IMG/VR virus record: IMGVR_UViG_3300033066_001054
Strand: one strand, 5' to 3'
Origin: a virus
Lineage: Duplodnaviria; Caudoviricetes
DNA: 64,000 nt
The notes below the pieces were generated by a model. That model was given only the letters and a program-made list of their open reading frames with translations. It was not told the DNA's origin and did no database searches. Positions 2,640 through 23,344 of this stretch are shown piece after piece (position 1 is the stretch's first letter; every line of letters starts with the position of its first letter). Both the position numbers and the translations under genes were made by a program.

Positions 2640-2700
2640 CGCTTGCATTATGTCATGAAAGTGTGGTAGAATGCAAGACCAACAAAAGAAAGGTGAAAAC

Positions 2701-3701: not shown

Positions 3702-5573
3702 ATGAGAACAGCCGAAGATGTGCTGAACATAATCATGGACAGAGGCAGACGAAAACTGCCGCTGGAAGACCTCTACAGACAACTGTTCAATCCGAACCTG
3801 TACCTGCGGGCTTACGGGCGACTGTATCGCAATGCAGGAGCCATGACCAAGGGTGCAACGGATGAGACGGTAGACGGCATGTCGATGGCGAAAATCAACG
3901 CCATCATCGACGCACTGCGAGCCGAAAGGTATCGCTGGACAGCGGTCAGGCGAGTGCACATCCCGAAAAGCAACGGGAAGACACGACCCCTGGGCATCCC
4001 TTCGTGGAGCGACAAGTTGCTGCAAGAAGTTATGCGTTCTCTTCTGGAGGCGTATTACGAGCCGCAGTTCTCTGAGTCGTCCCACGGCTTCCGCCCTGGA
4101 CACGGATGCCACACGGCGCTAACCACGGTCGCAAGAACGTGGGTCGGCACTAAGTGGTTCATCGAAGGGGACATTCAAGGATGTTTCGACAATATCGACC
4201 ACCAGATTCTTCTGGACCGATTGAGGAAGGACATCCACGACAACCGCTTCATGCGGTTGATGGAAGGTCTGCTGCGGGCAGGCTACATGGAGTACTGGCA
4301 CTACAACGAAACACTGAGCGGCACCCCGCAAGGCGGAGTCATCAGTCCGTTGCTCGCCAATATCTACATGGACATGCTCGACAAATTTGTCGAAGGAGTA
4401 CTCCTTCCAGACTACAACCAAGCTACCAAGAGAAGGAAGAACCCGCTGTACAACCGACTGGCTGGACAGGCTGAAACTCTGAGGAAGAACGGGAAGAAGG
4501 CGGAGGCAACGGTGCTCTTCAAACAGTACCAGAAGCTCCCGTCGCTCGACCCCAACGACCCAGACTACAGGCGGCTGCGCTATGTGCGATACGCAGACGA
4601 CTTCCTACTCGGGTTCGCTGGTCCAAAGCACGAGGCAGAAGACATCAAGCAACGCCTGAAAGCGTTTCTGCGGGACAGCCTTCATCTTTCGCTGTCCGAA
4701 GAGAAGACGCTTGTCACGCATGCGCAGACAGGCAGAGCGAGATTCCTCGGCTATGAAATTGGGGTCCGAACAATCAAAGACAAACACGACGACACCAGTC
4801 GGCGAACGATGTCCACGAGAATCGGTCTCTTCGTGCCCAAGGACTTCGTGGACGGTCGGTGCAGGAAGTATGCGAAGGATGGGAAACCCCACCACCGCGC
4901 TGAGTTGCTACACGATGAGGATTACAGCATCGTCAGCACCTACCAGAGCGAGTACAGGGGTTACGTCCAGTATTACTTGCTCGCCGAGAACGTGGCATGG
5001 CTTCAACGCCTCCATTGGTACATGCGAACATCGCTGCTGAAGACTCTTGCCCACAAGCATAAGTCAACGGTGACGAAGATGAACCAGAAGCACGAGGAAA
5101 TCGTGCAGACGGCGCATGGACAGAAGAAGGTGCTCCAAGTCACAGTCGAGCGCGAGGGCAAACCTCCGCTCGTCGCCCAGTTCGGCGGCATTCCGCTCCG
5201 TCGCAAGGTTGAGGCAGTGATACACGACCTCTCAACCCAGGCCTACACTCCTAAGCGAACCGAGTTGCTCAAGCGGCTCCTCGCCGACGAGTGCGAGCTA
5301 TGCCTATCAACAGATGGGGTGGAAGTCCACCACGTCCGAAAACTGGCAGACCTCAAGGTGAAGGGTCGAAGGGAGAAACCGCTATGGGCGCAGATTATGT
5401 CTGCTCGCAAGCGGAAGACCCTCGTTGTGTGTCGTGAATGTCACCTTGACATTCAATACGGTCGGCCCATTAGGGCACTCACCGCGATACAGGTTGCTGG
5501 AGAGCCGTGTGATGCGAAAGTATCCCGCACGGTTCGGAGGGGGCTTGTTGGAAAAGGAGGTGTTCAGTCATGA
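3702..5573 (+). CDS. ltrA: Group II intron-encoded reverse transcriptase/maturase with C-terminal HNH endonuclease
   Basis: RPLGIP, SHGFRP, GTPQGG and YVRYADD RT motifs, a domain X region, and CELC...VHHVR...CREC H. Confidence 0.95.
   Translation: MRTAEDVLNIIMDRGRRKLPLEDLYRQLFNPNLYLRAYGRLYRNAGAMTKGATDETVDGMSMAKINAIIDALRAERYRWTAVRRVHIPKSNGKTRPLGIPSWSDKLLQEVMRSLLEAYYEPQFSESSHGFRPGHGCHTALTTVARTWVGTKWFIEGDIQGCFDNIDHQILLDRLRKDIHDNRFMRLMEGLLRAGYMEYWHYNETLSGTPQGGVISPLLANIYMDMLDKFVEGVLLPDYNQATKRRKNPLYNRLAGQAETLRKNGKKAEATVLFKQYQKLPSLDPNDPDYRRLRYVRYADDFLLGFAGPKHEAEDIKQRLKAFLRDSLHLSLSEEKTLVTHAQTGRARFLGYEIGVRTIKDKHDDTSRRTMSTRIGLFVPKDFVDGRCRKYAKDGKPHHRAELLHDEDYSIVSTYQSEYRGYVQYYLLAENVAWLQRLHWYMRTSLLKTLAHKHKSTVTKMNQKHEEIVQTAHGQKKVLQVTVEREGKPPLVAQFGGIPLRRKVEAVIHDLSTQAYTPKRTELLKRLLADECELCLSTDGVEVHHVRKLADLKVKGRREKPLWAQIMSARKRKTLVVCRECHLDIQYGRPIRALTAIQVAGEPCDAKVSRTVRRGLVGKGGVQS
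5502..5535 (+). ncRNA. Group II intron catalytic domain V
   Basis: GAGCCGTGTGATGCGAAAGTATCCCGCACGGTTC: AGC triad, GAAA tetraloop, 34-nt hairpin. Confidence 0.92.
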
Positions 5574-5602
5574 GCACCCACCTCGCCAGCATTCCACCCT
5601 AC

Positions 5603-6325
5603 TTCATTGACGAACAGGACAGGGTTTGGGTTGGCGTCCACTTTGGCTCTCGTGGCCTTGGTCACGCAATTGCAACCGAGTACATTGACGTTGCAAAGTC
5701 GAAGGGGTATTTCCAAGATGGAATCAGCGTGTTGCATCACCAGTCTGATGCAGGCGAAGAGTACATCAAGGCAATGGACCTGGCAGGACGCTATGCTTAC
5801 GCAGGGCGCGACTGGGTTTGTGCAAAGGTTGCAAAAATCATTGGTGGAGACATCATTGACGAAGTGCATAACCATCACAACTTTGCTTGGCGCGAGACGC
5901 ACGGCGACGAGGATTTGTGGGTAGTCCGAAAGGGCGCAACTCCTGCATTCCCAGGTCAGCGTGGGTTCGTGGGTGGCTCAATGGGCGAGAATGCTGTGAT
6001 TATTGAGGGTATGGGTGGAGACCTCGCGGAACACACCTTGCACTCTACTGTTCACGGAGCAGGCCGCGTTATGAGCCGTACTCGAGCGAAGGGTAATGCG
6101 AAGAAGGGTATTCAGGGAGAAATTTCTGAACGAGCAATGCAGAAGTGGTTGAGCGAAGCTGGTGTCGTCCTTCGGGGCGGCGGAGTTGACGAGGCACCAC
6201 AGGCATACAAGCGTTTGACTGACGTTCTTGGTTATCACGGTGACAGCATTCGTGTTGTCCACACGTTGAAGCCAATTGGTGTTGCGATGGCTCCTTCTGG
6301 CACCAAAGACCCCTACAAGGACTAA
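5603..6325 (+). CDS. rtcB: RtcB RNA ligase, exon 2
   Basis: HFGSRGLG, HNHHNF, RKGATP, GGSMG, HGAGR (nucleophile His) and DEAPQAYK motifs. Confidence 0.92.
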   Translation, partial: FIDEQDRVWVGVHFGSRGLGHAIATEYIDVAKSKGYFQDGISVLHHQSDAGEEYIKAMDLAGRYAYAGRDWVCAKVAKIIGGDIIDEVHNHHNFAWRETHGDEDLWVVRKGATPAFPGQRGFVGGSMGENAVIIEGMGGDLAEHTLHSTVHGAGRVMSRTRAKGNAKKGIQGEISERAMQKWLSEAGVVLRGGGVDEAPQAYKRLTDVLGYHGDSIRVVHTLKPIGVAMAPSGTKDPYKD

Positions 6326-6333
6326 GTCTTTAT

Positions 6334-6373
6334 TTGGCATTCTGTATTTGTCTGTATAAAGACAGAATGCCAA
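6334..6373 (+). promoter_or_regulatory. Hairpin occluding the endonuclease start codon, with TGTATAAA in its loop
   Basis: 12-bp perfect stem TTGGCATTCTGT (6334-6345) / ACAGAATGCCAA (6362-6373). ATG 6367 lies in the 3' arm. Confidence 0.7.
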
Positions 6374-6837
6374 TAGGACTGAAACACACAAAGGAAGCTA
6401 AAGACAAGATATCTGCGGCGGCAAAAAAGACGATGTCTCAACCAAATGCAGGGTTTAGACAACGTGTTAAATGTCAATTTTGTGACCAAGAAATGAGTCC
6501 GGCGAACATGGGCAAGCACGCCAATAGATGTCGAGACACACGTGGTATTGAACTCAACGGCCAACAGTTGACAGTAAGAGAGATTAAGCGATTGCGAACA
6601 CGACTTAAACCACTTGGGTGGACTGTTGAAGATTATGTCCGTGTGTATCGCGAACAGCAAGGTCGTTGTTTCTTGTGTAACTCAGAACCGCAGAGAAGTT
6701 TGTCAGCAGACCATTGTCATACAAGCGGTAAATCAAGAGCATTGTTGTGCGACCAATGTAATCTTGGATTGGGTTCGTTCAAAGACGACCCAAATTTGAT
6801 GATTAAAGCAGCAGAATATATTAAGAGCTTTATGTAG
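6367..6837 (+). CDS. Free-standing endonuclease VII-family (His-Me) homing-type endonuclease with NUMOD3-like N-terminus
   Basis: KHTKEAKDKIS (NUMOD3-like); QQGRCFLC...DHCHTSGKSRALLCDQCNLGLG.FKDD (EndoVII). Confidence 0.85.
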   Translation: MPIGLKHTKEAKDKISAAAKKTMSQPNAGFRQRVKCQFCDQEMSPANMGKHANRCRDTRGIELNGQQLTVREIKRLRTRLKPLGWTVEDYVRVYREQQGRCFLCNSEPQRSLSADHCHTSGKSRALLCDQCNLGLGSFKDDPNLMIKAAEYIKSFM

Positions 6838-8557: not shown

Positions 8558-8633
8558 GGGTTAAGTATACCAGATTTGTTTTTTGTGCGCAACCTTGCGC
8601 GAGACCGTCGAAATATGCGATAATAGAAACGAC

Positions 8634-9602
8634 ATGGCTAACGGCAACGACATCCGTATTTTTTGTGGCAATGCTCATCGTGGTCTGGCAGAAGAAGTCG
8701 CCTCTCATTTGGGTGTGAGGGTTGGCAAAATGACATGTAGTCGTTTCAGCGATGGTGAAATTCGAGTAACCATTGATGAATCGGCGCGAGGGAATGATGT
8801 GAATATCATTCAGCCAACATGTGCCCCCACCAATGACAACCTTATGGAGCTGTTAATTATCCTTGATGCTTTCCGCAGGGCATCAGTAGATGAGATTAAC
8901 GTTGTCATTCCATACTTTGGGTATGCGCGTCAGGATAAAAAGGTCAAGCCCCGAGAACCAATCACGTCTGCGCTTGTGGCGGATTTGATTCAGACTGCCG
9001 GCGCGACTCGAGTTATGGTTGTCGACATTCACGCCGAACAGATTCAAGGCTTCTTCCGAATTCCTGTTGACCACTTATATGCCGGTCCTGTGATTGTAGA
9101 TTATTACGAGCAGATTGGCTACGTGGAACGAGACGACATTGTTATCGTTTCACCGGACGTTTCTGGTGTTGCTCGTGCGCGAAATCTTGCAGAAGCTCTC
9201 CATGCCCCTATCGCCATTATTGCCAAGCGACGCCCAGATGCCAATGTTGTGGAAATCGTTGAGGTTATCGGTAATGTTGCAGGCAAGCACTGCATCATGA
9301 TTGATGACATGCTTGACACAGGTGGAACAATTTTGGCTGGTGCCGAGGCATTGATTAAGAATGGTGCAATCAGTGTTGAGGTTGCTGTGACGCACCCAGT
9401 TCTTAGCGGGAATGCATCACAAAGGCTACAAGAATCCGATGTCATTACACGAGTGACGTGTCTAGACACTGTACCAATTCCATTTGAGAAACGATTCGAC
9501 AAGCTCAATGTCTTGTCTGTCGCGCCTCTGATTGGTGCTGCCATTCAGCGATTGCACGATAACAAGTCCGTGAGTGAGTTGTTTAGCAAGTGGCGACAGT
9601 AG
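8634..9602 (+). CDS. prs: Ribose-phosphate pyrophosphokinase (PRPP synthetase)
   Basis: FSDGE, NDNLMEL, PYFGYARQD, DIHAEQIQGFF, VSPD and DDMLDTGGT motifs. Confidence 0.96.
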   Translation: MANGNDIRIFCGNAHRGLAEEVASHLGVRVGKMTCSRFSDGEIRVTIDESARGNDVNIIQPTCAPTNDNLMELLIILDAFRRASVDEINVVIPYFGYARQDKKVKPREPITSALVADLIQTAGATRVMVVDIHAEQIQGFFRIPVDHLYAGPVIVDYYEQIGYVERDDIVIVSPDVSGVARARNLAEALHAPIAIIAKRRPDANVVEIVEVIGNVAGKHCIMIDDMLDTGGTILAGAEALIKNGAISVEVAVTHPVLSGNASQRLQESDVITRVTCLDTVPIPFEKRFDKLNVLSVAPLIGAAIQRLHDNKSVSELFSKWRQ

Positions 9603-9633: not shown

Positions 9634-10410
9634 ATGGGAACTGCCAAGGTCGGCATACTTTATGTGCATGGAATAGGCACACAAGGTCATAACTTTGCAG
9701 ACAGAGATATAGCTCTGATGCAGAAGATGCTTGGAGAACATGCCGAGCATGTTGCTTTTTCATCTTATTGCTGGCAGTCGCTTATTGAGCCAAGAGAACG
9801 TGAATTGATGCAGAAAAACCAGCGTGTGGGCTGGAGGTTCTTACGAAGACTATTGGCATCTTATGGTGGAGATGCGCTCTGCTATCAGCCAAGACACGGA
9901 CTGGATTCGTTCTATAAAGAAGCACATCGTGGCCTAGACAATGCGCTGCTAATCCTTCATCACAAGATGGCCAAAGACGGCAAGCTGATTATTGTTGCGC
10001 ACAGTCTTGGAACAATCATTGTCAACAACTTCATTTGGGATTACCAGAATGAGGGTTCGGTCGGAGCCGCTGCATATGAACCCGCTGGTAGTGCGCTCGA
10101 TAGACTGAGCGTGCTTTATACTCTTGGTTCTCCACTTTCAGTTTGGTCGATGAGATTCCCAGATGGTGGTACACCAATCTCACTGCCTAGTGGCTGTCTC
10201 TGGAGAAACATCTATAGTCCAGCCGACATTATTGGTTGGCCAATTCGCACAATCAATTCTGCATACATGACATTGTCTGGTTTGCGCGATTTCAGAATGT
10301 GGGTGGGTGGTATTTTGACCAGGTGGAATCCGGGGTCGCACCTGGCCTATGCAAGAAGCAAGAAGGTAGTCAAAATGATTGCCGATGACGTAGTCCGTAT
10401 TATGGAATAA
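9634..10410 (+). CDS. Alpha/beta-hydrolase-like protein
   Basis: VHGIG, AHSLG nucleophile elbow, TLGSP, D and terminal SH. Confidence 0.7.
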   Translation: MGTAKVGILYVHGIGTQGHNFADRDIALMQKMLGEHAEHVAFSSYCWQSLIEPRERELMQKNQRVGWRFLRRLLASYGGDALCYQPRHGLDSFYKEAHRGLDNALLILHHKMAKDGKLIIVAHSLGTIIVNNFIWDYQNEGSVGAAAYEPAGSALDRLSVLYTLGSPLSVWSMRFPDGGTPISLPSGCLWRNIYSPADIIGWPIRTINSAYMTLSGLRDFRMWVGGILTRWNPGSHLAYARSKKVVKMIADDVVRIME

Positions 10411-10915: not shown

Positions 10916-10952
10916 TTGATTATGATACCATGTTTTGTGGTATCATTTGGGC
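10916..10952. promoter_or_regulatory. Back-to-back divergent leaderless promoters
   Basis: Inverted repeat ATGATACCA (10922-30) / TGGTATCAT (10938-46). Each TATCAT lies 6 nt before an ATG (10915 on -, 10953 on +). Confidence 0.7.
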
Positions 10953-11636
10953 ATGTTGAAAAACATCGTAGCGGTCAATGAAATGCTCCCAAGTTCGCTT
11001 CAGGGCGAGTATCGAGCATTTGTTTTTGCGCACGTTGGCCCGGACGGTTGTGTTTTGCACATATATGGCGGTCCTGAGCTTCAAAATGTAAATGAAAAGT
11101 ACTTAGAGGATTGCGTTTTCATTGGTGGCATGCATCGCCTCAACCCAGACAGGATGACAATTATCAAGTCTTTGGTTGCGATTCCTGTACGAGAAACGTC
11201 AACTCATGCCGGCATTGAGCTTGCACAAGAATGCATTTCTGAAAGTCCATCAAGGTCTACCGACTTTGGATTCAACGAACCAATCTTGTTTGAACACTCT
11301 GACAAATACCGCATCAATATTGCCGGTCGCAATCCCAATCCAGAATTCTTCCATAAGTGCCCGTCGTTTCAAGAGACAGACAACCAACATCATCCATTTT
11401 TGTTGTTTGAGATTGAGTCAAAACAGTCCGAAGTTCGTATCATACACAACCCACAACAATTACTTCAATATCCAAAGCACACTCAAGTGATGGTTCAGTG
11501 GCCTGGTAAATGGTCTAGTCACTTTTTTACGTTCAAAATCGGTGAATTGTTGGATTACATGTGCGACAATAATATAGACGTGTCAAAGCTGGGAACACCG
11601 GCATTTGCCGCTGGACAACAAGAATGGAATATCTAG
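10953..11636 (+). CDS. Hypothetical protein
   Basis: Long ORF overlapping the speD start. Confidence 0.6.
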   Translation: MLKNIVAVNEMLPSSLQGEYRAFVFAHVGPDGCVLHIYGGPELQNVNEKYLEDCVFIGGMHRLNPDRMTIIKSLVAIPVRETSTHAGIELAQECISESPSRSTDFGFNEPILFEHSDKYRINIAGRNPNPEFFHKCPSFQETDNQHHPFLLFEIESKQSEVRIIHNPQQLLQYPKHTQVMVQWPGKWSSHFFTFKIGELLDYMCDNNIDVSKLGTPAFAAGQQEWNI

Positions 11637-12025
11637 GTCATCATATTGTTCTCGACTTTCACGGCTGTAGCCCAACAGTACTTGCCGATTGTGAACTCAT
11701 GCGCAAAATCATGTCTGAGGCAGCAGTTCGCGCAGAGTGTCATGTAGTTGGTGAATTCTATCACGAATTCGAACCGCATGGCATCAGCGGATGCACGATT
11801 ATCAGCGAGTCGCACCTGACAATTCATGCGTGGCCAGAACACGGCTATGCTGCGGTCGATTTCTTCTATTGCGGCAATTCGGTTTTGGCAGATTTGGCCA
11901 TTGATTACATGAGCGAAATGTTTCAGTCTGGTCGCGTTGACAGGCACGAATTAGGGCGAGGCGCAGTCGACAAATCTGGAGTTTTTGGTTCGGTTTTAAT
12001 TGCCGGCGACGATTTTGACAAATGA
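11624..12025 (+). CDS. speD: S-adenosylmethionine decarboxylase proenzyme
   Basis: GHH...HEFEPHGISG..ISESHLTIHAWPEHGYAAVD..C, with the E|SH self-cleavage site. Confidence 0.92.
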   Translation: MEYLGHHIVLDFHGCSPTVLADCELMRKIMSEAAVRAECHVVGEFYHEFEPHGISGCTIISESHLTIHAWPEHGYAAVDFFYCGNSVLADLAIDYMSEMFQSGRVDRHELGRGAVDKSGVFGSVLIAGDDFDK

Positions 12026-12093
12026 CACCACGAGTCGCAAGAAATGTGGTATCATAATGATGCAAGGGCTTAAAAACCCTGGAGAAACAAACA

Positions 12094-12912
12094 ATGAATG
12101 TACATCTTCTGATTATTGACCCGCAGAACGACTTCTGCGACCCAACAACAGGCGCATTGTACGTTGGCGGTGCAGACCAGGACATGAATCGTCTGGCAGA
12201 TATGATTGACCGGCTAGGTTCTTCCATCTCTGACATTCACGTGACACTGGACTCGCATCATCTTAACGACATCGCCCATCCTAACTGGTGGAGAGACAGC
12301 GCAGGCAACCCTCCTTCCCCTTTCACCATCATCACAGCGGCGGATGTCGAGAACCAAGTTTGGACTACTACAGTCCCAGGACTCTACCGTCGCTCTCTCG
12401 AGTATGTTCGGTCTCTTGAATCGAACCAGCGATATCCTCTGTGCATTTGGCCTCCGCACTGCCTTATCGGCACCAATGGCGCGGCAATCTGGCCTCGACT
12501 CATGACCAGCCTTAACAAGTGGGCGGCATCAGAGAACAGCACTATTGACTTCGTCACAAAGGGTTCAAATGTGTTTACGGAGCACTACTCGGCTGTCAAG
12601 GCAGACGTTCCAGACCCGCTTGACCCCACAACTCAAATCAACACTCGCCTGATTGACGTTCTGCAGAGCGCAGACATGATTGCCATTGCCGGCGAAGCAT
12701 CTTCTCACTGTGTTGCTAACACTGTTCGAGACATTGCTGACGCTTTTGGCAACGACAGTTACGTCAAGAAGCTGGTGTTCATTTCCGACGCATCAAGTCC
12801 CGTTACTGGCTTTGAGCAGTACAGCGATTCGTTCATCAATGAGATGACCGCACGCGGAATGCAGATGAGCACAACGGCAGACTTTCTGGTTCGCCAGATG
12901 GCCACGGTTTAA
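12094..12912 (+). CDS. Nicotinamidase/isochorismatase-family cysteine hydrolase (PncA-like)
   Basis: IDPQNDF, D-S-H, WPPHC, TKG and GEASSHCV give the Asp/Lys/Cys triad and metal ligands. SD GGAGA. Confidence 0.88.
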   Translation: MNVHLLIIDPQNDFCDPTTGALYVGGADQDMNRLADMIDRLGSSISDIHVTLDSHHLNDIAHPNWWRDSAGNPPSPFTIITAADVENQVWTTTVPGLYRRSLEYVRSLESNQRYPLCIWPPHCLIGTNGAAIWPRLMTSLNKWAASENSTIDFVTKGSNVFTEHYSAVKADVPDPLDPTTQINTRLIDVLQSADMIAIAGEASSHCVANTVRDIADAFGNDSYVKKLVFISDASSPVTGFEQYSDSFINEMTARGMQMSTTADFLVRQMATV

Positions 12913-12921
12913 GGAGAAACA

Positions 12922-13665
12922 ATGCCAAAAATCTTTGACCCTACTCTCGAAAACCACACCTTGGCCACCAGTCATTATGGATTTTCGGCTGAGAGCATCA
13001 ACAACCTTGGTGCAACCGAGTACACGCTTGTCACAGTTGCCGCTGATACCAGCAGCAGCGTTCATGGATTCGCAAATGAAATCGAGGAATGTCTCAAGAA
13101 CATTCTCCGCGCATGTCGCTACAGTCCGCGAGCTGATAACCTGATGGTTCGCGTTGTTGAATTCAACGACCAAATCAACGAACTTCACGGCTATACTCTT
13201 CTTGAGAAGCTGAAGGAAGACGATTACAATGGAGCGATTCGTCCCAGAGGCAGCACCGCACTGTACGACGCTTCATACAACGCCATTGAGGCCGCGAGTA
13301 CTTACGGAAAGCACCTTAATGACATGGACTACACTGTGAATGCTATTGTTGTTGTGCTGACAGATGGCGAAGAGAACGCCAGTTCTATTCGCTCGGCGCA
13401 GATGATTGCTGACCAGGTATCCAACATCACTCGCACAGAGACCCTTGAGTCCGTAAGGACTATTCTTGTTGGTCTCAACGCCTCGTCTCAACTGAACTCG
13501 TATCTGACCGACTTCAAGGATAACGCGAAGTTTGACCAGTACGTTTCGGTTCAGGATGCCAGCCCGAAGAGCATTGCCAAAGTCGCAGACTTTATCTCGC
13601 GCAGTATTTCTGCTCAGAGCCAGAGCCTCGGCACTGGTGGGCCTTCTGTGCCGTTGACATTCTAA
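12922..13665 (+). CDS. vWA (TerY-like) MIDAS domain protein
   Basis: DTSSS (DxSxS), GSTALYDA and VLTDGEEN motifs. SD AAGGAG. Confidence 0.88.
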   Translation: MPKIFDPTLENHTLATSHYGFSAESINNLGATEYTLVTVAADTSSSVHGFANEIEECLKNILRACRYSPRADNLMVRVVEFNDQINELHGYTLLEKLKEDDYNGAIRPRGSTALYDASYNAIEAASTYGKHLNDMDYTVNAIVVVLTDGEENASSIRSAQMIADQVSNITRTETLESVRTILVGLNASSQLNSYLTDFKDNAKFDQYVSVQDASPKSIAKVADFISRSISAQSQSLGTGGPSVPLTF

Positions 13666-13671
13666 CGACTA

Positions 13672-13699
13672 GAGCGTGCCGGCTGGAACCGGCACGCTC
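13672..13699 (+). promoter_or_regulatory. GC-rich intergenic hairpin without U-tract
   Basis: GAGCGTGCCGG-ctggaa-CCGGCACGCTC, an 11-bp perfect stem. Confidence 0.6.
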
Positions 13700-13711
13700 A
13701 TACAAACGCTA

Positions 13712-14578
13712 ATGCCAGCAGATTCTTACTACACCAAAGGTTGGACTCACACAGTTTGCCAGGATTATGCAATCCATGGTTCTCTGGTGACATTGTCTGA
13801 CAACGAAAAGACGCGAATGGACTATGGTCTAGTGTCTGATGGTTGTTCATCGAGCGATGACACAGATATTGGTTCGCGATTGATTTTGCGTTCTGCATAT
13901 TGTCATTCTGGTTGCATGCAAAACATATTGCGTTGCGTGGATGCCGAAGGCGGCAACTACATGGGTAACGCCAATGGTTTGTGGACTGATTTTGCTCACA
14001 AAGTTGCTATGTACGCCGGTAAATGGGTTAGTGAAATGGAGCTAGACCAAACCGCGTTAGATGCCACGCTACTGGGCGCATTTGCAGACAATAAATGGGC
14101 ATGTACAGCCAGTTACGGCGACGGTTCTCATATTGTTTGTCGAAGAGTTGGAACAGAGCGAGTCATTGAAATCGAACACATTGATTTCTTGGCCAATGCG
14201 CCACCCTATCCTGTGTATTTGACAGACAATGAATTGCAAAGCGCATTTGCCAATTACAGTGGAAACACGAAGCGCGTTATGCGTTGGACATCCAAGGGCG
14301 AGTTCGAAGAGAGACTTGGTGGTGAACCAAGTCATGTTCTCGTGTATCCCGCCGAAGAAGTTGAGTTTGTCGCAGTGGTTTCAGATGGTGTTTCGTCATT
14401 TGGCGATATTGGATGCTTTGAAGTAATTCAGGCATTCACGGCATTCAGAAACTATGCTGGCGAATTCGTCAAAAGGCGAATGATGCGAGCTCTTGACGAA
14501 TATCAAAAGAGCCAGCATGTCCCATCGGACGATGTTTCGATGGCTGTTGTTTACGCACGATACGGTCATGCAATATAA
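13712..14578 (+). CDS. PP2C-family protein phosphatase (TerY-P type)
   Basis: H..CQD, VSDGCSS, DATL, GDG, VSDG and DDVS motifs. Confidence 0.88.
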   Translation: MPADSYYTKGWTHTVCQDYAIHGSLVTLSDNEKTRMDYGLVSDGCSSSDDTDIGSRLILRSAYCHSGCMQNILRCVDAEGGNYMGNANGLWTDFAHKVAMYAGKWVSEMELDQTALDATLLGAFADNKWACTASYGDGSHIVCRRVGTERVIEIEHIDFLANAPPYPVYLTDNELQSAFANYSGNTKRVMRWTSKGEFEERLGGEPSHVLVYPAEEVEFVAVVSDGVSSFGDIGCFEVIQAFTAFRNYAGEFVKRRMMRALDEYQKSQHVPSDDVSMAVVYARYGHAI

Positions 14579-16229
14579 GGTTGGTTCCAAGACTGTTACC
14601 CTCTCCAACAAAGACCTAAAGGGTTCTGGCGGAGAGGGCAGTGTGTATGTCAAGGGCAGTTCTGCTTACAAAATCTACCATGACCGCAACAAGATGTTGC
14701 CACTTGGTAAGATTCAAGAATTATCCGCAATTCAAGACCCGAGGGTTATCAGGCCACTCGAGGTTGTTTCTGATGCCCAAGGACCGGTTGGGTACAGCAT
14801 GATTGCAACACCACAAGACGCATGTGTGCTGTGTCAATATTTTCCGCGTGCATTTCGAACCAGGTTCAGTCTTGACAGCGCTTTCTCAAATGCGCTTGTA
14901 GAAGAAATCCGCTCTGGTGTTGAAAACATTCACAAAGCTGGCGTGTTGTTGGTCGACCTTAATGAAATGAATTTTCTTTTTAAGACACAGAGTCCAAATG
15001 TGTTTTTCATTGATGTTGATTCATACCAAACCCCGCACCACAACGCCACAGCTTTGATGGAGAGTGTTCGTGACAGGCACGCAAAGCAAAACCAATTCAA
15101 CCTTGGCACAGACTGGTTTGCGTTTGCGATTGTGAGCTTCCAGATTTTTACCGGCATTCACCCGTACAAAGGCAAGCACCCTAGCCTCAAGACAATTGAT
15201 GAGAGAATGCTTGCAAACATTTCTGTATTGAATTCATCTGTAAATGTTCCTGGTGCGTGTCTGCCGTTTGATGTAATACCGGCCAATTATCGTGATTGGT
15301 ACGAAAGAGTTCTCGAGAAGGGTGAGCGAAGTGAGCCGCCTACATGCACGACTTCACCAGTGGTCATACTCAAAACCGTTAGTCTTGCTGGTGGTGGAAA
15401 GATTCGGATTATCCATGTTATGCAAGCGCAGTCAGATATCGCAGATTACTATAACGGCGCATATGTCTTTTCTGGCAACGTGTGTGACGCACACGGTATC
15501 AGGAAGGCGTCTAATCTCGTTGGTGAGGTTCGATTGTTTGGAACCAAGACCGGCACCGCAGCGGCTTATGTCAAATACGGAATTCTTCACGTAGTAGACC
15601 TGAACACTGGCAATGATATTGACAGCGGTGTTGCATGTAGTTCTATGTCGTTGTGTGATGGCAAGCTGGTTTACCAATCTGGCGAATACCTTTATGCGGC
15701 CGATTTGATGCCGGCAGGCAGTAATATTTTGTTCACCAAAAAGCAAATAGCAAACGTATTGCCCCTTGGCACACAGCTTTATGACGGTGTTGCAATGCAA
15801 GATTTGCTTGAGGCCAAATATGCAACGATTCTTTCCAAAGACGGAGCGCACCAAATCAAACTGGCTGAGATTTCTGGACACCGAGTAATCTCGGCAAAGT
15901 GTCTTGGCAGAGTCCTTGTTGTTATTGCGGAGTCCAAGGGTGTTTACAATCGTCACGTATACAGGTTTGATGACACGTTCCAGAAATATGACCACAGAGT
16001 TGTAGATGATGTTGGTGTTGGCGAGGCAAACTTCTGCGTATTGGACAGTGGTGTCACATTGCTTATGTGTAATGATGATTCACTTGAGGTGTTCTCGTCC
16101 AAGATTCATTCTGGCAGCATCAGCACCGTGAATGACCCCGCAATCAACAGCAACTGTAGTCTGTTCTCTGTCGGTTCGAAGGCAATGTACATTTACGGAA
16201 ATAAGGTTGACCAGTTCACAATGTCTTAG
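14568..16229 (+). CDS. Ser/Thr protein kinase-like protein with beta-rich C-terminal region (TerY-P type)
   Basis: GSGGEG, AYKIY, DLNEMN, IDVDSY, TDWFAF and GIHPY motifs. Confidence 0.88.
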   Translation: MQYKVGSKTVTLSNKDLKGSGGEGSVYVKGSSAYKIYHDRNKMLPLGKIQELSAIQDPRVIRPLEVVSDAQGPVGYSMIATPQDACVLCQYFPRAFRTRFSLDSAFSNALVEEIRSGVENIHKAGVLLVDLNEMNFLFKTQSPNVFFIDVDSYQTPHHNATALMESVRDRHAKQNQFNLGTDWFAFAIVSFQIFTGIHPYKGKHPSLKTIDERMLANISVLNSSVNVPGACLPFDVIPANYRDWYERVLEKGERSEPPTCTTSPVVILKTVSLAGGGKIRIIHVMQAQSDIADYYNGAYVFSGNVCDAHGIRKASNLVGEVRLFGTKTGTAAAYVKYGILHVVDLNTGNDIDSGVACSSMSLCDGKLVYQSGEYLYAADLMPAGSNILFTKKQIANVLPLGTQLYDGVAMQDLLEAKYATILSKDGAHQIKLAEISGHRVISAKCLGRVLVVIAESKGVYNRHVYRFDDTFQKYDHRVVDDVGVGEANFCVLDSGVTLLMCNDDSLEVFSSKIHSGSISTVNDPAINSNCSLFSVGSKAMYIYGNKVDQFTMS

Positions 16230-16243
16230 GGTATACTAACAAC

Positions 16244-18037
16244 ATGCAAGTAAGTATGGCGCAAATCAGAGTCAAATCTGGTGACATCGAAGGTAATCTC
16301 AGTCGTATTCTCGGCGCACTCGAAGAGGTTCCTGAAAGCACCGATGTCGTCCTCTTCCCAGAAATGTGTATCTCTGGATACAACGTTGGGTGTTTGTTTG
16401 AATACGAACAATTCATCCAAGACTGCACCAACGCAGTTGAACGAGTTGCGCAAGCAGCCAGGTCGATTAGAGAAAATCTGATTGTGGTTGTTGGTGCCCC
16501 GCGATTTGCCAACAATCCTGTAGATGACCAGGGTAATGTTCGACTTCACAATTCGGCCTTTGTTATCAAAAACGGTCAGGTCATCCACATTTATGACAAG
16601 CACATTCTTGCAAACGATTATCACCACGAAGACCGCAAGTATTTTGTGCCAGGTACTACTTCGCCTATCGTGCCAGGCCACCCGCTTGCCGTTCTAATTT
16701 GTGAAGATATTTGGCACAAGGAAACTCTCGAGAGTTTGACTGACAATATTCGTTCTGCTGAGCTCAATGGACAACCAAGGGTCAGCGAACTATTGGTTCT
16801 CAACTTTTCGTATTACTGCGCGGACAAACTCCCGTCTCGACACTCAAACGCACAGCTTATTGCCACTAATGCTGACATTAACGTGTATTACTGCAATGCC
16901 ATTGGTCTTGGCGACATTAGCAAGAACATCCTGGTATATGACGGTGCGAGTTTTGTTGTCTACTCTGACGGTGGTCGCCTGGACGCGCCCAGATACACTT
17001 CCGGTGTCTATCACAATGGCAACATGTGGCCTGCTCCGTACCCCTCATGGGAAGAGGAAACCATGGAGTCTTTGGTTTACGCCGTGCGCTATGCTTGGGA
17101 AGAATTTGGACTCAAGTGTGCGCAAGTACACCTGTCTGGTGGTGTAGATAGCAGTGTGGTCGCTGTAATCGCCGTAGAGGCACTTGGAAAGAAGAATGTG
17201 ACATTCGTTACCAACCCAGGCGAACACACGTCTAAAACGACTCTCAAGCTGGCAAAGCAGGTTGCTCATGGACTCGATGTGCCATTGACAGTATTGCCTG
17301 TCAAGACCATGGAAAGCGCACTTGGCAAAGTGTTCGCGAAGATTGGCAACGTCGCATCAATCACCAAGTCGACAATCTCTGCTGTTGGTCGCACAGTTGT
17401 TGGTCTTGCGATGACCAACCAGCAATTTGCAGACGGTAAGCCAACTGGAATTTTAGCAACAGGCAATCACACCGAGAACTATCTTGGTTGGTGTAACTTC
17501 CATGATATTGGAAGCATTGGCGTCATGCAACCCATTGGAGACTTGACAAAGACTGAACTCTTTGCGCTTTGTCGATATATCAACTCCATGAATGAAACCA
17601 ACTTGATTCCAAGAGAGTTGATTGATGGCCGTGTTAAGCCGATGGCAGAGCTGGCTGACACAGACGTGGACCCATTCGACTACTATCTATGTTCTGGTAT
17701 TTGCGCCGAAATGCTCCGTGCTCGAGCGACGCCTCGTCAGCTTCTTGAGCAGTTCGACTCAAAAACCCTAAATCCGACTTCGTTCCCTGGCCCAGAGGTA
17801 TACGAGTACAGTCGTGCGTTATTTGCGTCTACTTGTGAGGACGTAGCGCGACGTGCGCAACGCTCGGTATACAAGTCTGCACAGCATGCTCCTGTGTTGG
17901 TGTTAAGCAAGCGAACTCGAGGTTTCAGCGCAAGAGAAACACTTATCAATCACTACAAGTGGAGTTCGGCTCGGCCCACCGGCAGAAGTGCTAGTGTAAG
18001 CGACCAAGACTCAAATAAGTCCATCCTTGTTGTTTGA
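16244..18037 (+). CDS. nadE: Glutamine-dependent NAD+ synthetase
   Basis: CN-hydrolase domain (FPE, YDK, ICED) fused to an NAD synthase domain (LSGGVDSS, TGN.TE, PIGDLTKT, P.AEL). Confidence 0.92.
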   Translation: MQVSMAQIRVKSGDIEGNLSRILGALEEVPESTDVVLFPEMCISGYNVGCLFEYEQFIQDCTNAVERVAQAARSIRENLIVVVGAPRFANNPVDDQGNVRLHNSAFVIKNGQVIHIYDKHILANDYHHEDRKYFVPGTTSPIVPGHPLAVLICEDIWHKETLESLTDNIRSAELNGQPRVSELLVLNFSYYCADKLPSRHSNAQLIATNADINVYYCNAIGLGDISKNILVYDGASFVVYSDGGRLDAPRYTSGVYHNGNMWPAPYPSWEEETMESLVYAVRYAWEEFGLKCAQVHLSGGVDSSVVAVIAVEALGKKNVTFVTNPGEHTSKTTLKLAKQVAHGLDVPLTVLPVKTMESALGKVFAKIGNVASITKSTISAVGRTVVGLAMTNQQFADGKPTGILATGNHTENYLGWCNFHDIGSIGVMQPIGDLTKTELFALCRYINSMNETNLIPRELIDGRVKPMAELADTDVDPFDYYLCSGICAEMLRARATPRQLLEQFDSKTLNPTSFPGPEVYEYSRALFASTCEDVARRAQRSVYKSAQHAPVLVLSKRTRGFSARETLINHYKWSSARPTGRSASVSDQDSNKSILVV

Positions 18038-19271
18038 GCTTTTCCGAGTCCATGGCGTTGCGTGCATCCAGAAACACAGGATTGCGCATTTGCTCAAAGA
18101 TGTCGCTGGTGTCGGTGTTCATGAATTCTGGCCATTCGGTAAGAAGACATATTGCATCGGCACCATCTGCTGAATCATAAATGTTTTTCGATTGCTTGAT
18201 AAGCCCGGTTTCTAGAGTTGCCACAGGGTCATATGCAGTGACATTCGCGTCTCTTTCAAGCAATAGATTGATGAATTTGATAGCCTGAGAATCACGGGTG
18301 TCGTCTGTTCCTGGTTTGAATGACAGCCCCCACACTGTAATGTTCCTTCCTTGAAGACCGCAAAGTTCCTCTTCTAGCAAACTCATGTACAGTTTTGGCA
18401 TATATCGGTTAATGTCTCGTGCCGACTTCAATATGCCACAGTCGATGAATGCACTGTCAGACATGTGTATAGCAGCACTGACGTCTTTGGGGAAGCAAGA
18501 GCCGCCATAACCAATGCCGGCGTTTAAGAATTCGTGACCAATTCGATGGTCACTACCCATTCCCTTGGTGACTTCGGTGACATCAGCACCATAGTATTCA
18601 GACATTTGGGCAAGCCAGTTCACGAAGCTAATTTTGGTGGCTAGGAACGAATTGCTCGCGTATTTGATGAGTTCTGCGGATTCAACCGAGCACACCTCAA
18701 TTGGTGCCTCAAGTTTGTCATACACTTTTGTCATCGCCATGATTGCATTGAGGCTTTTTGCACCAATGATAATTCGGTCAGGGTGCAGTGTGTTTTGCAA
18801 TGCGCGGCCTTCTTGTAGAAATTCTGGGTTGCTAACCACCTCGCAAGGCATTCCTGGTCTGATTTGTTTGATATATTCTTGCGCCCATTTTGCGGTACCG
18901 ACAGGAACCGTCGACTTGTTGACAATGATTTTGGGCTCGTTTAGTGCATGTATGACATCAGTGAGCACCTCTTGGTATTGAGTCATGTCAACGCTTCCGT
19001 CTTCGTTTTGTGGTGTGCCAACACAAATGAAAATGATGTCGCTGCTTTTGACTCCGTGCGCAAGGTCTTGTGTGAATCTGATAGTGTGCGATTTAAGCAC
19101 CTTATTCATCAAAGGCTCAAGGCCAGGTTCATAAATACACGGCTTACCGTTGCTGAGCGATTTCACTTTATCTGCATTTTGGTCGACACAAATGACGTAA
19201 TGTCCCTGGTTAGCCAACACGACGCCAGTTACAAGACCAACATAACCAGTACCCAAAACGCAAATATTCAT
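17991..19271 (-). CDS. ugd: UDP-glucose 6-dehydrogenase
   Basis: GTGYVG, KSTVPVGT, SNPEFL, KYASN, GYGGSCFPKD and FKPGTDD motifs. Confidence 0.95.
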   Translation of the reverse strand: MNICVLGTGYVGLVTGVVLANQGHYVICVDQNADKVKSLSNGKPCIYEPGLEPLMNKVLKSHTIRFTQDLAHGVKSSDIIFICVGTPQNEDGSVDMTQYQEVLTDVIHALNEPKIIVNKSTVPVGTAKWAQEYIKQIRPGMPCEVVSNPEFLQEGRALQNTLHPDRIIIGAKSLNAIMAMTKVYDKLEAPIEVCSVESAELIKYASNSFLATKISFVNWLAQMSEYYGADVTEVTKGMGSDHRIGHEFLNAGIGYGGSCFPKDVSAAIHMSDSAFIDCGILKSARDINRYMPKLYMSLLEEELCGLQGRNITVWGLSFKPGTDDTRDSQAIKFINLLLERDANVTAYDPVATLETGLIKQSKNIYDSADGADAICLLTEWPEFMNTDTSDIFEQMRNPVFLDARNAMDSEKLKQQGWTYLSLGRLH

Positions 19272-19541: not shown

Positions 19542-20789
19542 TTATTGCGCCACTAGTGCGTTCTGCCAATTCTTTACCGATTCAGAATATTTGCAGAACG
19601 GGCAATCTGGATTTGATTCTGGTGGCTCGGTTTGCATCAGCAATTCCGCCACATCGTGCAGCATTTGCCTAAACCATTTCTTGTCCATTTCCAGTTCAGT
19701 CCATGTGATTTTGCCGTTCAACTGCGCTTCTATACCATCGACGTTGAACACTTGTGGTTCGTACACCAAAAGACCGAGTCGTGTTACAGGCGAGAATGAA
19801 ACGGCATTTTCGGCCGCTTTGCTGAACGCGAACGCATAAGAGTGTAGCTGTGCTGCGTAAATGAGCAAGTGCTCTGGTTTTGGCATGCTTGTTTTGTAGT
19901 CTACGATAACATAACCCTTAGAGTCCAAGTCTTCTGCAATACCGTCCGTCTTGCCGTGAACAAACACCTGTGCTCCCAGGTCTTCAAATTGAATTGCCTC
20001 AGAAGTACATGTCATGTTCTTGCCAATGATTTTGATATTTGGCAGGCCTGGGTCAATTTCTGACAGAGTTTTGCCCTGGAAAAACGACTGCATTCCGCCA
20101 TCAATTGTGTTGAAGATTTTTGCCATTGGTGTAAACGGTCTTGGCACAGACTGCGAATACTTGAGCCAATAGCATCGTTTGCACTCCTTCCACAGAAATG
20201 CGAAGTCGCTAGGTGATAGTTTGAAAGTTTTCATTGTGTTCTGCTCATTTAACCACCCTTCAACAATTTGCTTGTGTTCTGGGCGGGCCAGGTTGTATAC
20301 TGGCACGTTGTATTCGCTTGCTATGCGAATCGCTTGACCAGTTCCACCTGTCTTTTTTGTAGTCTCACTTTTAGTTATCGCACCATCGGGCGTCCAACAC
20401 ACAACAAATTCAACTGGACTTTGTAAATCCGGACCCATCACTTGATGTACGTTTCTGGAGTGCAACTTCTGCACAAAATCACCGAGATACATCCATCCTG
20501 GGTGCATTTTGCTGGCTATCTCCATCGCAGGGGGCCAGTCTGGAACAACGTATGGTTCTTTCCGGGGCCGGCGATTCCAGCCAACTGCAGGAAGGAAAAT
20601 AACCATGTTCCCGTTGTTTGATTTGCAGCCGTTCTCAAATGCGGTGTCTGCGCCATCAGCCCCACCAGAATACAAAGTGTATCCTTTTTTGGCCAAGTGT
20701 GCAGCGACGCGCTCCATGAGTGCGATAATATCTGCCGGCGTTTGTCGCGAACCTATTCCGGCGTATTGCACTGAATCACCATTTGACAA
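19542..20789 (-). CDS. SLOG (DprA/YspA-like) domain fused to a PD-(D/E)XK Cas4-like nuclease
   Basis: N-terminus: YAGIGSR.TP, SGGADGAD, GGTGQA. C-terminus: LSPS...CKRC, GKTD, VDYKT, QLHSY, C..C. Confidence 0.8.
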   Translation of the reverse strand: MSNGDSVQYAGIGSRQTPADIIALMERVAAHLAKKGYTLYSGGADGADTAFENGCKSNNGNMVIFLPAVGWNRRPRKEPYVVPDWPPAMEIASKMHPGWMYLGDFVQKLHSRNVHQVMGPDLQSPVEFVVCWTPDGAITKSETTKKTGGTGQAIRIASEYNVPVYNLARPEHKQIVEGWLNEQNTMKTFKLSPSDFAFLWKECKRCYWLKYSQSVPRPFTPMAKIFNTIDGGMQSFFQGKTLSEIDPGLPNIKIIGKNMTCTSEAIQFEDLGAQVFVHGKTDGIAEDLDSKGYVIVDYKTSMPKPEHLLIYAAQLHSYAFAFSKAAENAVSFSPVTRLGLLVYEPQVFNVDGIEAQLNGKITWTELEMDKKWFRQMLHDVAELLMQTEPPESNPDCPFCKYSESVKNWQNALVAQ

Positions 20790-21394: not shown

Positions 21395-22648
21395 ATGTTT
21401 ACATTTATTGATTTGTTTTCAGGAATAGGCGGTTTCAGAATCGCTCTCGAGTCTTTGGGAGGAAAATGCGTAGGCAGTTCAGAAATTGCAGGTCCTGCAA
21501 TCAAAGTCTACCATGATAATTGGTCCGAAGACGATAATGTCGGGGACATAACCAAGATTTCCTCTCTTCCAGAGCATGATATCATGGTCGGTGGCGTGCC
21601 TTGTCAGAGTTGGTCAATTGCCGGAAAGATGAAGGGGTTTGAAGACCCTCGTGGTCAGCTATGGGGCGATGTCATTAGGTTACTGAACAAGAATCAACCC
21701 AAGGCGTTCATCTTTGAGAACGTCAAGGGCTTAGCCGACCCAAGAAACACAGTTGAAAGAGAGTTCTTGATTGAGCAGATGAATCTTGCCGGTTACGACG
21801 TTAGATACAAGCTATTGAATGCATATGACTATGGTGTGCCGCAAAACAGAGAGCGCATATTTATCGTCGGAGCAAAAGACTTGACCGATTTTCAGTGGCC
21901 CCAAGAGTGTCGCTCGCAAACAATGCTGCTAGACTACATGGACGGCATGGAGCACCTAAGGGCGCATGCTGTACGCAACAGCGACCCAGAAATCAATCAA
22001 GCCACCACTGGCAACAGATTGACACTGCATGGTGAAAGAAACGAGTTTTTCATCTTCAATGATGTTAGAGATGGTGAAACGGTTATCCACTCATGGGACC
22101 TTAAGGGTTTATCTCATAGAGAGTGTGAAATCTGCAATACGATATTGAAGAACCGAAGAAGTAGCAAATATGGTCCAAAAGACGGCAATCCGCTATCATA
22201 CCAAGACCTTTTGGTGCTGATTCCTAATCTGATGGAAGTCGAACTAGTCAAGCTGCAGAACGCTGGTGTATTGGTAAGATTCGACCAAAGTAAATACGAC
22301 TTTAAGAACAGACGACAATTATCAGGAATTGATGGGGTATATCGCATCTTCTTGCCCAATGCACGATTCTTTTCAACGTTGACCGCATCGGGGACTCCAG
22401 ATTTGATTGCAACCACTCTGATATCAGCCAGCACTGACGAGGAGTATCGTCGCAAATTCATTAAAGAGATATACGATGCCAAGGCATACAGAAGACCCAC
22501 CGCTCGAGAATATGCAAGAATTCAGGGTTTTCCAGACACACATCGCTTGCATCCATCTGCCAGCGCGAATACAAAGCTGATTGGAAATGCCGTGCCACCA
22601 CCTTTAGTAAAGCAAGTGGCACAGCAATTGGTCAAAGTGCTCAGATAG
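21395..22648 (+). CDS. DNA (cytosine-5) methyltransferase
   Basis: DLFSGIGG, GVPCQ, ENVKG, PQNRER, RIQGFP and GNAV motifs. Confidence 0.95.
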   Translation: MFTFIDLFSGIGGFRIALESLGGKCVGSSEIAGPAIKVYHDNWSEDDNVGDITKISSLPEHDIMVGGVPCQSWSIAGKMKGFEDPRGQLWGDVIRLLNKNQPKAFIFENVKGLADPRNTVEREFLIEQMNLAGYDVRYKLLNAYDYGVPQNRERIFIVGAKDLTDFQWPQECRSQTMLLDYMDGMEHLRAHAVRNSDPEINQATTGNRLTLHGERNEFFIFNDVRDGETVIHSWDLKGLSHRECEICNTILKNRRSSKYGPKDGNPLSYQDLLVLIPNLMEVELVKLQNAGVLVRFDQSKYDFKNRRQLSGIDGVYRIFLPNARFFSTLTASGTPDLIATTLISASTDEEYRRKFIKEIYDAKAYRRPTAREYARIQGFPDTHRLHPSASANTKLIGNAVPPPLVKQVAQQLVKVLR

Positions 22649-23282
22649 GCCAGCCTTCTCCGAGCCTGAGATATTCACCGATGTTCTTGTTGAACTCATT
22701 GATTGACTTGTAGTATTCAAATCGCTTCTTGTACCACACCACAATCGGTTCCTGGTTCATTTGCATCAGCGCATAGTTGAGCAAAATTCTACCAGTGCGG
22801 CCATTGCCATCAGCAAAAGGGTGGACAAACTCAAACGAGTGATGAATGCCCCATGCGATTTCCAAGGCATGCTCTGGCGTACCGTCAAACGATGCGAGTT
22901 CTTCTTTGACCTTCGGTGCCCAACGTTCTCGCATTAGGTAATCAACAAACATATGTTTTGGGCATTGGTGACCACCAACCTCGAGTTCTTCCTTCCGATA
23001 GTTACCAGAGAGGGACTGCGTCTCATACCAGTCAATCCCGCGTGTCAGAGCACGATGGATGTCTTTGGCAATATCGCCATAAAACGGCTGAGAGACAAGC
23101 TCTTTCGCCAGTTCAAATGCATTGACAGAGTTGTTGTACATCAATTGCCCAGGCTTGGTGGCCGGCAAGAGACCAACACGCATGTCTCTGTCTTGGTATT
23201 GTGGGTCAATCAAGCACGACTGCGTAACAAATGTATGCAAATCAAACCCATTTTTTCTCGCGACTGTCATGATTCTAGACAT
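22641..23282 (-). CDS. Fic domain protein
   Basis: Canonical HPFADGNGRTGR motif. Start uncertain. Confidence 0.9.
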   Translation of the reverse strand: MSRIMTVARKNGFDLHTFVTQSCLIDPQYQDRDMRVGLLPATKPGQLMYNNSVNAFELAKELVSQPFYGDIAKDIHRALTRGIDWYETQSLSGNYRKEELEVGGHQCPKHMFVDYLMRERWAPKVKEELASFDGTPEHALEIAWGIHHSFEFVHPFADGNGRTGRILLNYALMQMNQEPIVVWYKKRFEYYKSINEFNKNIGEYLRLGEGWPI

Positions 23283-23344
23283 AATACCATATCTGGTGAA
23301 ATCTGTATAAGACAAACAAGAACCAGGAGGTTACTTCGACAAAC

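Follow-up and report, generated by a model that had tools for sequence, protein, structure and literature searches.

The depletion of NAD+ is a major bacterial strategy against phages, and the routes by which phages rebuild NAD+ are an active field; to our knowledge, every route published to date consists of enzymes alone. The present study concerns five genes at positions 12,094 to 18,037 of a 64,000-nucleotide stretch of the virus record IMGVR_UViG_3300033066_001054 (Duplodnaviria; Caudoviricetes), hereafter the window. The first four, which encode a predicted PncA-type nicotinamidase, a vWA protein, a PP2C-type phosphatase and a Ser/Thr protein kinase (the last three are called the triad below), constitute a conserved cassette, and the fifth encodes the NAD+ synthetase NadE. 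The enzyme that opens the deamidating route is tied to a kinase, a phosphatase and a putative vWA adaptor, both in over 70 contigs of huge phages and in chromosomes of several bacterial phyla.

The TerY-P triad was defined by Anantharaman, Iyer and Aravind in 2012 (as summarised in PMC11090510), and the studied example of this type is yegL-pphC-yegI of E. coli (10.1101/819920, 10.1101/303594), in which YegI is an experimentally active Ser/Thr kinase of the eukaryotic-like type (eSTK) with the PP2C-like PphC as its partner phosphatase. The kinases of TerY-P systems end in a zinc ribbon (classic form) or an OB fold (defence type), and a phosphorylation switch has been hypothesised for them (PMC11090510). 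The cassette resembles these systems in having a TerY/YegL-like vWA protein with a MIDAS, a PP2C and a YegI-type Hanks kinase. It differs in that the kinase ends in a seven-bladed beta-propeller and not in a zinc ribbon, an OB fold or the membrane segment of YegI, that the nicotinamidase is a fixed fourth member, and that its genomic setting is that of NAD salvage and of the NrtR regulon rather than tellurite resistance, DNA processing or a defence island. In a PADLOC scan, the vWA and PP2C proteins matched no family at E≤0.01, and the kinase gave weak matches to PD-T4-6 and others. The preliminary description of this locus, made from the sequence, had recognised a TerY-P triad; this was correct for the three domain families, but not for the C-terminal domain of the kinase, the matches to defence models or the context.

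Concerning NAD+ synthesis, jumbo phages encode pncB, nadD and nadE of the Preiss-Handler/salvage route, often in clusters (PMC11662467), and the lineage of the window likewise holds the full set. The same paper mentions no kinase, phosphatase or vWA protein, and neither the fixed four-gene unit nor its bacterial counterpart is described there. The NARP pathways are composed of Adps and Namat (NARP1), NadV and NMNAT (NARP2) or PnuC and NadR (NARP3) (10.1101/2024.02.11.579819; PMC13464706). They share with the cassette the phage-encoded rebuilding of NAD+ from breakdown products, and nicotinamide, the product of NADases, would be the input of the cassette too. However, the lineage of the window uses a four-step deamidating route via nicotinate (PncA, PncB, NadD, NadE), and no kinase, phosphatase or vWA module is attached to the NARP pathways. 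None of the NARP enzymes (Adps, Namat, NadV, NMNAT/Nudix, PnuC, NadR) was found in the cluster or among its neighbours. In bacteria, NrtR is an ADP-ribose-responsive repressor of NAD salvage genes, with regulons that include nrtR-pncA-pncB operons (Rodionov et al. 2008, PMC2330246). The bacterial cassette similarly adjoins nrtR, often together with pncB, whereas genes for a vWA protein, a PP2C or a protein kinase are absent from the regulons in that paper (PMC2330246).

A literature search for the coupling of a nicotinamidase with a kinase, phosphatase or vWA protein found no description, and surveys of wide scope, on jumbo phages and on viral NAD systems, mention neither nicotinamidase nor its coupling to the triad. 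The arrangement had been thought undescribed in phages, which agrees with this search as regards the coupling, but NAD+ synthesis by jumbo phages is already published (PMC11662467).

A four-gene cassette in huge phages and bacterial chromosomes

The cluster consists of five plus-strand open reading frames (ORFs) in one direction, tightly packed with gaps of 9, 10, -11 (an overlap) and 14 nt. An associated gene, prs, lies outside the cassette.

12094..12912, + strand: predicted PncA-type nicotinamidase, 272 aa (Isochorismatase Pfam match, fold, catalytic residues)
12922..13665, + strand: YegL/TerY-like vWA protein, 247 aa (Pfam VWA, intact MIDAS, YegL alignment)
13676..14578, + strand: PP2C-type Ser/Thr protein phosphatase, 300 aa, GTG start (Pfam PP2C_2, metal-binding Asp)
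14568..16229, + strand: YegI-like Hanks-type Ser/Thr kinase with a seven-bladed beta-propeller, 553 aa (profile matches, AlphaFold2 model)
16244..18037, + strand: glutamine-dependent NAD+ synthetase NadE, 597 aa (CN_hydrolase and NAD_synthase, TIGR00552)
8583..9602, + strand: ribose-phosphate diphosphokinase Prs, associated gene outside the cassette (NF002320, 427.5 bits)

For the kinase ORF, which ends at 16229, the start candidates are 14493 and the ATG at 14568; the latter is the most likely, because it fits the N-terminus of the homologues. Among 116–133 non-identical orthologues, conservation of the catalytic residues in the four cassette proteins is 94–100%. The five genes had been described as real, co-directional and packed, with intact catalytic motifs, and both the ORF coordinates and the conserved residues agree with this. 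The window is part of a huge phage. Its phage origin is confirmed by PHROG matches to a DNA polymerase, a large terminase, a ribonucleotide reductase, a clamp loader and a RecJ-like exonuclease. The contig of a 95% identical relative (locus L005) is 478,840 bp long, has direct repeats at its ends and is rated 100% complete. This complete relative (genome G001) served as a stand-in for the whole genome of the window.

At the DNA level, a search of the phage collection returned a 174-bp weak match alone, and the relatives came from protein-level searches. In that collection, the kinase was present in just three uncultured huge phages and the nicotinamidase in four records, while IMG/VR yielded 80 cassette loci on contigs of up to 548 kb, 73 of them distinct. 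All four cassette genes lie on one strand in 60 of the 73 distinct loci. Among these 60, the order PncA>vWA>PP2C>kinase is kept in 57, and the other three are cyclic permutations that retain the PncA-vWA and PP2C-kinase pairs. The tightest pair is the nicotinamidase and the vWA protein, whose gene stands immediately 3' of the nicotinamidase gene in 46/60 phage loci and in all complete bacterial loci. Unlike the window, many phage loci carry extra genes inserted among the cassette members. The conserved unit is made up of four genes (nicotinamidase, vWA, PP2C and kinase), not five.

The cassette is not specific to phages, as several bacterial phyla carry it as a chromosomal operon. When species genomes were scanned for the kinase, 76 loci were obtained, from Armatimonadota, Acidobacteriota, Myxococcota and a small number of further groups; together with four individually examined loci these make 80 loci found through the kinase, all bacterial except the phage-like region L090/L091. 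The genes are tightly packed, with a vWA gene in 66 of the 80 loci, a PncA-like gene in 64 and a PP2C gene in 57, and where a member is missing, the contig is in most cases truncated. The adjacent genes include NrtR in 27/80 loci and PncB in 16/80, NrtR often heading the operon and PncB coming after. In the 4.1-Mb contig of a closed Capsulimonadaceae metagenome-assembled genome (MAG) chromosome, the genes for the nicotinamidase, vWA, PP2C, kinase and PncB stand beside leuA, leuB and P-II. In the 7.6-Mb chromosome of Capsulimonas corticalis, the order is NrtR, nicotinamidase, a vWA-sized ORF, ADP-ribosylglycohydrolase, kinase, a nucleoside-deoxyribosyltransferase-like protein and PncB. The housekeeping flanks of these two examples identify the cassettes as chromosomal operons. 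In the synteny search as a whole, a PncA-like gene accompanied the vWA-PP2C-kinase triad in nearly every phage and bacterial relative, which upholds the grouping proposed in the preliminary description.

Several variations were seen in the bacterial operons. An ADP-ribosylglycohydrolase occupies the position of the PP2C in Capsulimonas species (L087, 8932-9990; also L088 and L097-L099). A Nuc_deoxyri_tr2-family protein lies between the kinase and PncB in L087 (11669-12118), L088, L097 and L098, and was undetected in L099. In Pyrinomonadaceae, an ADP-ribosylglycohydrolase gene is divergently transcribed upstream of NrtR.

In the phages, ORF clustering around the cassettes gave PncB (28 loci) and NadE (21 loci) as the commonest neighbours; NadD (in 9 loci), an NAD-dependent DNA ligase (in 7) and a Nudix protein (in 6) recurred as well. 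The representative PncB passes TIGR01514, and the representative NadD passes both NF000840 and TIGR00482. The NAD genes frequently stand between cassette members, as in L024, where the order is vWA..PncB-NadE-PP2C-NadD-kinase. The distance to the nicotinamidase gene is at most 10 kb for PncB in 16/30 phage contigs (3.2 expected) and for NadE in 16/31 (3.5 expected), statistics that are inflated because the contigs are phylogenetically non-independent. Among the 18 phage records of at least 90% completeness, PncB was present in 14, NadE in 14 and a NadD-type gene in 13. An NrtR-like gene was found in 5/80 phage loci, so that most phage cassettes have no NrtR. Since the cassette lies among PncB, NadD and NadE in phages and among NrtR and PncB in bacteria, the data support its membership in the gene set for the salvage of nicotinamide to NAD+ in both. 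It had earlier been suggested that the triad may be tied to NAD or nicotinamide status; gene linkage now supports this tie, and a proposed switch mechanism is considered below.

The lineage of the window has a complete Preiss-Handler set, because the nicotinamidase, NadE and Prs are encoded locally and PncB and NadD in G001, away from the cassette; no PncB or NadD gene was found in the window. NadE, the final Preiss-Handler step, scores 55 bits with Pfam CN_hydrolase, 83 bits with NAD_synthase and 67.3 with TIGR00552 (cut-off 63.65), and the full-length equivalog NF010588 was not reached (235.9 versus a cut-off of 479). Its residues 2-473 align to the glutamine-dependent NAD+ synthetase 5kha (E 3.5e-40), and it carries the E-K-C motifs (FPE, DKH, ICEDIW) and the SGGVDSS PP-loop. 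Prs, 2.5 kb upstream of the nicotinamidase gene, is a canonical ribose-phosphate diphosphokinase by its NF002320 score (cut-off 297), and this position is kept in L005 and L090 only. Three loci alone (the window, L005 and L090) have NadE immediately 3' of the kinase, which makes the five-gene arrangement lineage-specific; elsewhere it is nearby at varied positions, distant or absent. NadE had been counted as a fifth member, which is true of these three loci and does not extend to the others.

Predicted proteins of the cassette

The first gene is predicted from sequence and fold to encode a PncA-type nicotinamidase that hydrolyses nicotinamide. The protein scores 30.5 bits with Pfam Isochorismatase (cut-off 27), and its top NCBIfam match is nicotinamidase, although the score of 45.5 bits with NF008623 does not reach the equivalog cut-off of 174. 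The best sequence matches in the PDB are Mtb PncA and yeast Pnc1, with the catalytic Asp/Lys/Cys and the WPPHC motif aligned. The triad D9/K156/C206 and the metal ligands D53/H55/H122 are 99–100% conserved in 133 sequences. In a Foldseek search with the AlphaFold2 model (pLDDT, the predicted score in the local distance difference test, of 95), ranks 1-14 were all solved nicotinamidases, with target-normalised TM-scores (TMt) of 0.52–0.81 (about 0.76–0.81 for 13 of the 14). The protein belongs to a long subfamily with an insertion of ~50 aa at residues ~64-115 and with invariant residues of its own (Y104, L108, E163, H164, T180, N183).

This long subfamily also occurs in Patescibacteria (P0129-P0147; ~515 aa, with an unrelated N-terminal domain of ~250 aa) and in oomycetes such as Pythium and Phytophthora (P0149-P0153; 544–718 aa). 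The extra sequence of the longer relatives is the unrelated N-terminal domain (Patescibacteria), a homing-endonuclease domain or a eukaryotic extension, and in no case a vWA domain; the search for longer vWA proteins returned none. A fusion of NadE and nicotinamidase (P0160) was set aside as too weak, as it lies on a 9-kb contig of 0.4x coverage that has no triad.

The vWA protein scores 27.8 bits with Pfam VWA (cut-off 23.8), and its MIDAS residues (D42-x-S44-x-S46, T112, D148) are 94–100% conserved. Its C-terminal tail is Ser-rich and conserved (S226, S228, S233). The hhalign comparison of its profile with E. coli YegL, in which this tail is included, gave E 7.9e-5 at a probability of just 61%. 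The phosphatase scores 29 bits with PF13672 (PP2C_2; cut-off 24), its metal-binding residues D30, D55, D149, D237, D285 and D286 are 98–100% conserved, and pairwise BLASTP against PphC gave no signal.

Although the Pfam Pkinase score of the kinase (23.3 bits) is below the cut-off of 31.7, the assignment as a protein kinase stands because the profiles match RSK2/NEK2 and E. coli YegI, the latter by hhalign with a probability of 97.5% (E 6.3e-12, 255 columns). Residues G21, G22, K35, D130, N135 and D149 are conserved. The AlphaFold2 model (pLDDT 89.9) comprises a kinase domain (1-262), a flexible disordered linker and a 28-strand, seven-bladed propeller (279-553), and in Foldseek it matches best the kinase-WD40 portions of LRRK2 and LRRK1. 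The family has at least 1857 members in a large protein database, some on megabase contigs, and was met almost solely beside this nicotinamidase subfamily in both phages and bacteria. In the kinase tree (FastTree, midpoint root), the copies of Acidobacteriota and Armatimonadota form clades that follow taxonomy, and the phage copies are deep and paraphyletic; the tree, rooted at the midpoint only, does not show whether phages or bacteria were the donor.

Proposed function and alternative explanations

Based on the linkage to salvage and on the homology of the triad to the YegL-PphC-YegI-type module, the best explanation, which we hold with moderate confidence, is that the four-gene cassette, with NadE as a lineage-specific addition, forms a reversible phosphorylation switch on the nicotinamidase step of Preiss-Handler salvage. 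The nicotinamidase would convert nicotinamide to nicotinate; PncB and NadD, encoded elsewhere in the genome of this lineage, and the adjacent NadE would complete NAD+ synthesis, with Prs supplying phosphoribosyl pyrophosphate (PRPP) to the PncB step. The kinase and the PP2C would act as a reversible Ser/Thr switch that turns the nicotinamidase step on and off, most likely through the vWA protein as a MIDAS adaptor, whose Ser-rich tail is a candidate phospho-acceptor. The propeller of the kinase may be a sensing or docking domain. The phage would benefit by keeping NAD+ available for replication, possibly by rebuilding it from nicotinamide freed by host NADase defences. In this proposal, we infer the regulation of the nicotinamidase by the triad, the phosphorylation target, the input signal and the counter-defence role.

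If the triad controls the nicotinamidase, this would be the first post-translational control of NAD+ salvage in bacteria or phages, and it would give the TerY-P/YegI-PphC-YegL family its first metabolic role and concrete candidate substrates. Further, the picture of NAD+ in jumbo phages would be extended from gene content to regulation. In that case, Capsulimonas corticalis, as a sequenced isolate with the operon, would offer a tractable test system. A more far-reaching version, to which we give a rather low probability, is that a TerY-P/YegI-type switch directly gates the nicotinamidase on a cue of NAD+ breakdown, and that in huge phages this constitutes a regulated fourth reconstitution route, of the Preiss-Handler type, which overcomes NADase immunity.

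Several observations weigh against the proposed switch. Nicotinamidase and NAD genes are present without the triad in L058, L067 and L076, which indicates that the triad is dispensable for the nicotinamidase. The replacement of the PP2C by an ADP-ribosylglycohydrolase in Capsulimonas is unexpected for a simple kinase/phosphatase pair. A search for fused ("Rosetta-stone") forms found neither the nicotinamidase nor the vWA protein joined to a kinase or phosphatase, and both the phosphorylation of the cassette proteins and the binding between them are points that we infer. As the nicotinamidase scores far below the NCBIfam equivalog cut-off, its substrate could differ from free nicotinamide, and the non-independence of the phage contigs lessens the weight of the PncB and NadE statistics. 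For the nicotinamidase and the vWA protein, both supplied as alignments, complex prediction gave a score of 0.01, which counts neither way on binding.

The alternative that survives best, though it appears unlikely, is that the triad is a signalling or takeover module co-regulated with NAD salvage, whose target would lie among other proteins of host or phage or among the enzymes that consume NAD, with the nicotinamidase merely co-expressed. The substrates of the related YegI/PphC pair of E. coli are unknown (10.1101/819920), and the propeller could dock many partners, both of which leave room for such a target. However, the nicotinamidase and vWA genes form the tightest pair, kept even in the permuted loci, and the near exclusive occurrence of the kinase family beside this nicotinamidase subfamily also argues for a closer relation.

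It is less probable still that the isochorismatase-fold enzyme has a substrate other than free nicotinamide, for instance nicotinamide mononucleotide (NMN), nicotinamide riboside or an immune signal derived from NAD, which would make the cassette a signal-processing or anti-defence device and not the entry to salvage. The distinct long subfamily, with its ~50-aa insertion and family-specific invariant residues, and the score under the NCBIfam nicotinamidase cut-off would suit another substrate. On the other hand, all catalytic and metal residues of nicotinamidases are kept, the top structural matches are nicotinamidases, the oomycete homologues are labelled nicotinamidase by their sources, and the commonest neighbour is PncB, which uses the product nicotinate.

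The preliminary description had also considered a captured defence module used against rival phages. A stand-alone TerY-P-type module for defence or superinfection exclusion, lying beside the NAD genes by chance, now seems very unlikely. Its domain triad is that of TerY-P, the kinase and the vWA protein are distant homologues of YegI and YegL, and TerY-P-like modules act against phages (Gao et al. 2020, as summarised in PMC11090510). These likenesses are outweighed by the PADLOC results, in which the vWA and PP2C proteins had no match and those of the kinase were weak and unrelated, and by the kinase C-terminus, which is a propeller and not a zinc ribbon or OB fold. Moreover, the coupling to the nicotinamidase is near-obligate, and the bacterial setting is metabolic (NrtR, PncB and housekeeping genes) and not a defence island.

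PncA enzymes require bound metal. In another alternative, which has little chance of being correct, the vWA protein would be a chaperone for metal insertion into, or assembly of, the nicotinamidase, and the kinase and PP2C would just tune this chaperone. The conserved metal ligands and the tight adjacency of the nicotinamidase and vWA genes would fit, as would the fact that vWA proteins are co-chaperones in several systems (PMC7824862, PMC9503650), but the cassette has no MoxR-type AAA+ partner, and canonical PncA enzymes are not known to require a chaperone.

Finally, the idea that the five genes are unrelated auxiliary genes and chance neighbours in a gene-dense region, as the mixed surroundings (FolD, S-adenosylmethionine decarboxylase, UDP-glucose dehydrogenase, Fic, methylase) could suggest, has a negligible probability and is refuted for the four-gene cassette by the order conserved in 57/60 phage loci and in the bacterial operons of several phyla.

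Other observations in and around the cluster

A region that shares the gene order of the window was seen in an Armatimonadota MAG (L090/L091; JAFDWS010000002.1, a 1.36-Mb contig), with RtcB, Prs, S-adenosylmethionine decarboxylase, the cassette, NadE, UDP-glucose dehydrogenase (UGDH), a PD-(D/E)XK nuclease, a methylase and Fic; its kinase is 61% identical to that of the window. The same MAG has a terminase 74% identical to that of the window; if this terminase is on that contig, its coordinates put it ~45 kb away from the cassette, a spacing that the window shares. This suggests that a related huge phage is integrated in, or was co-assembled with, an Armatimonadota genome, a possible clue to the host. 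In G001 (L086, 2036-2662), a small RelA/SpoT-family hydrolase-like ORF is located directly 3' of the NadD gene.

Concerning expression signals, a promoter and terminator scan of 11500-18600 remained at background level, and the TGTATAAA motif was not found near the cluster. Read by eye, TGgTATCAT at 12047-12058, in the 68-nt gap before the nicotinamidase gene, resembles an extended -10 element, and a GGAG Shine-Dalgarno sequence is present at 12083-12086, 8 nt ahead of the ATG.

Directly upstream of the nicotinamidase gene, an S-adenosylmethionine decarboxylase is encoded at 11624-12025; the upstream ORFs 9634-10410 and 10935-11636 gave no Pfam, PHROG, NCBIfam, PADLOC or PDB-sequence match. 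No tRNA genes were found in the window. The RtcB RNA ligase gene is split into ORFs 2671-3204 and 5570-6325 by a reverse-transcriptase ORF at 3702-5573 (PHROG), an interruption consistent with a group II intron, and an endonuclease VII gene follows the second part at 6334-6837. A histone-deacetylase-family amidohydrolase is encoded at 247-1200 and a Fic-domain protein at 22641-23315. Close to the NAD genes, a single minus-strand ORF at 19542-20789 combines a DprA/SLOG-like N-terminal domain with a PD-(D/E)XK nuclease domain.

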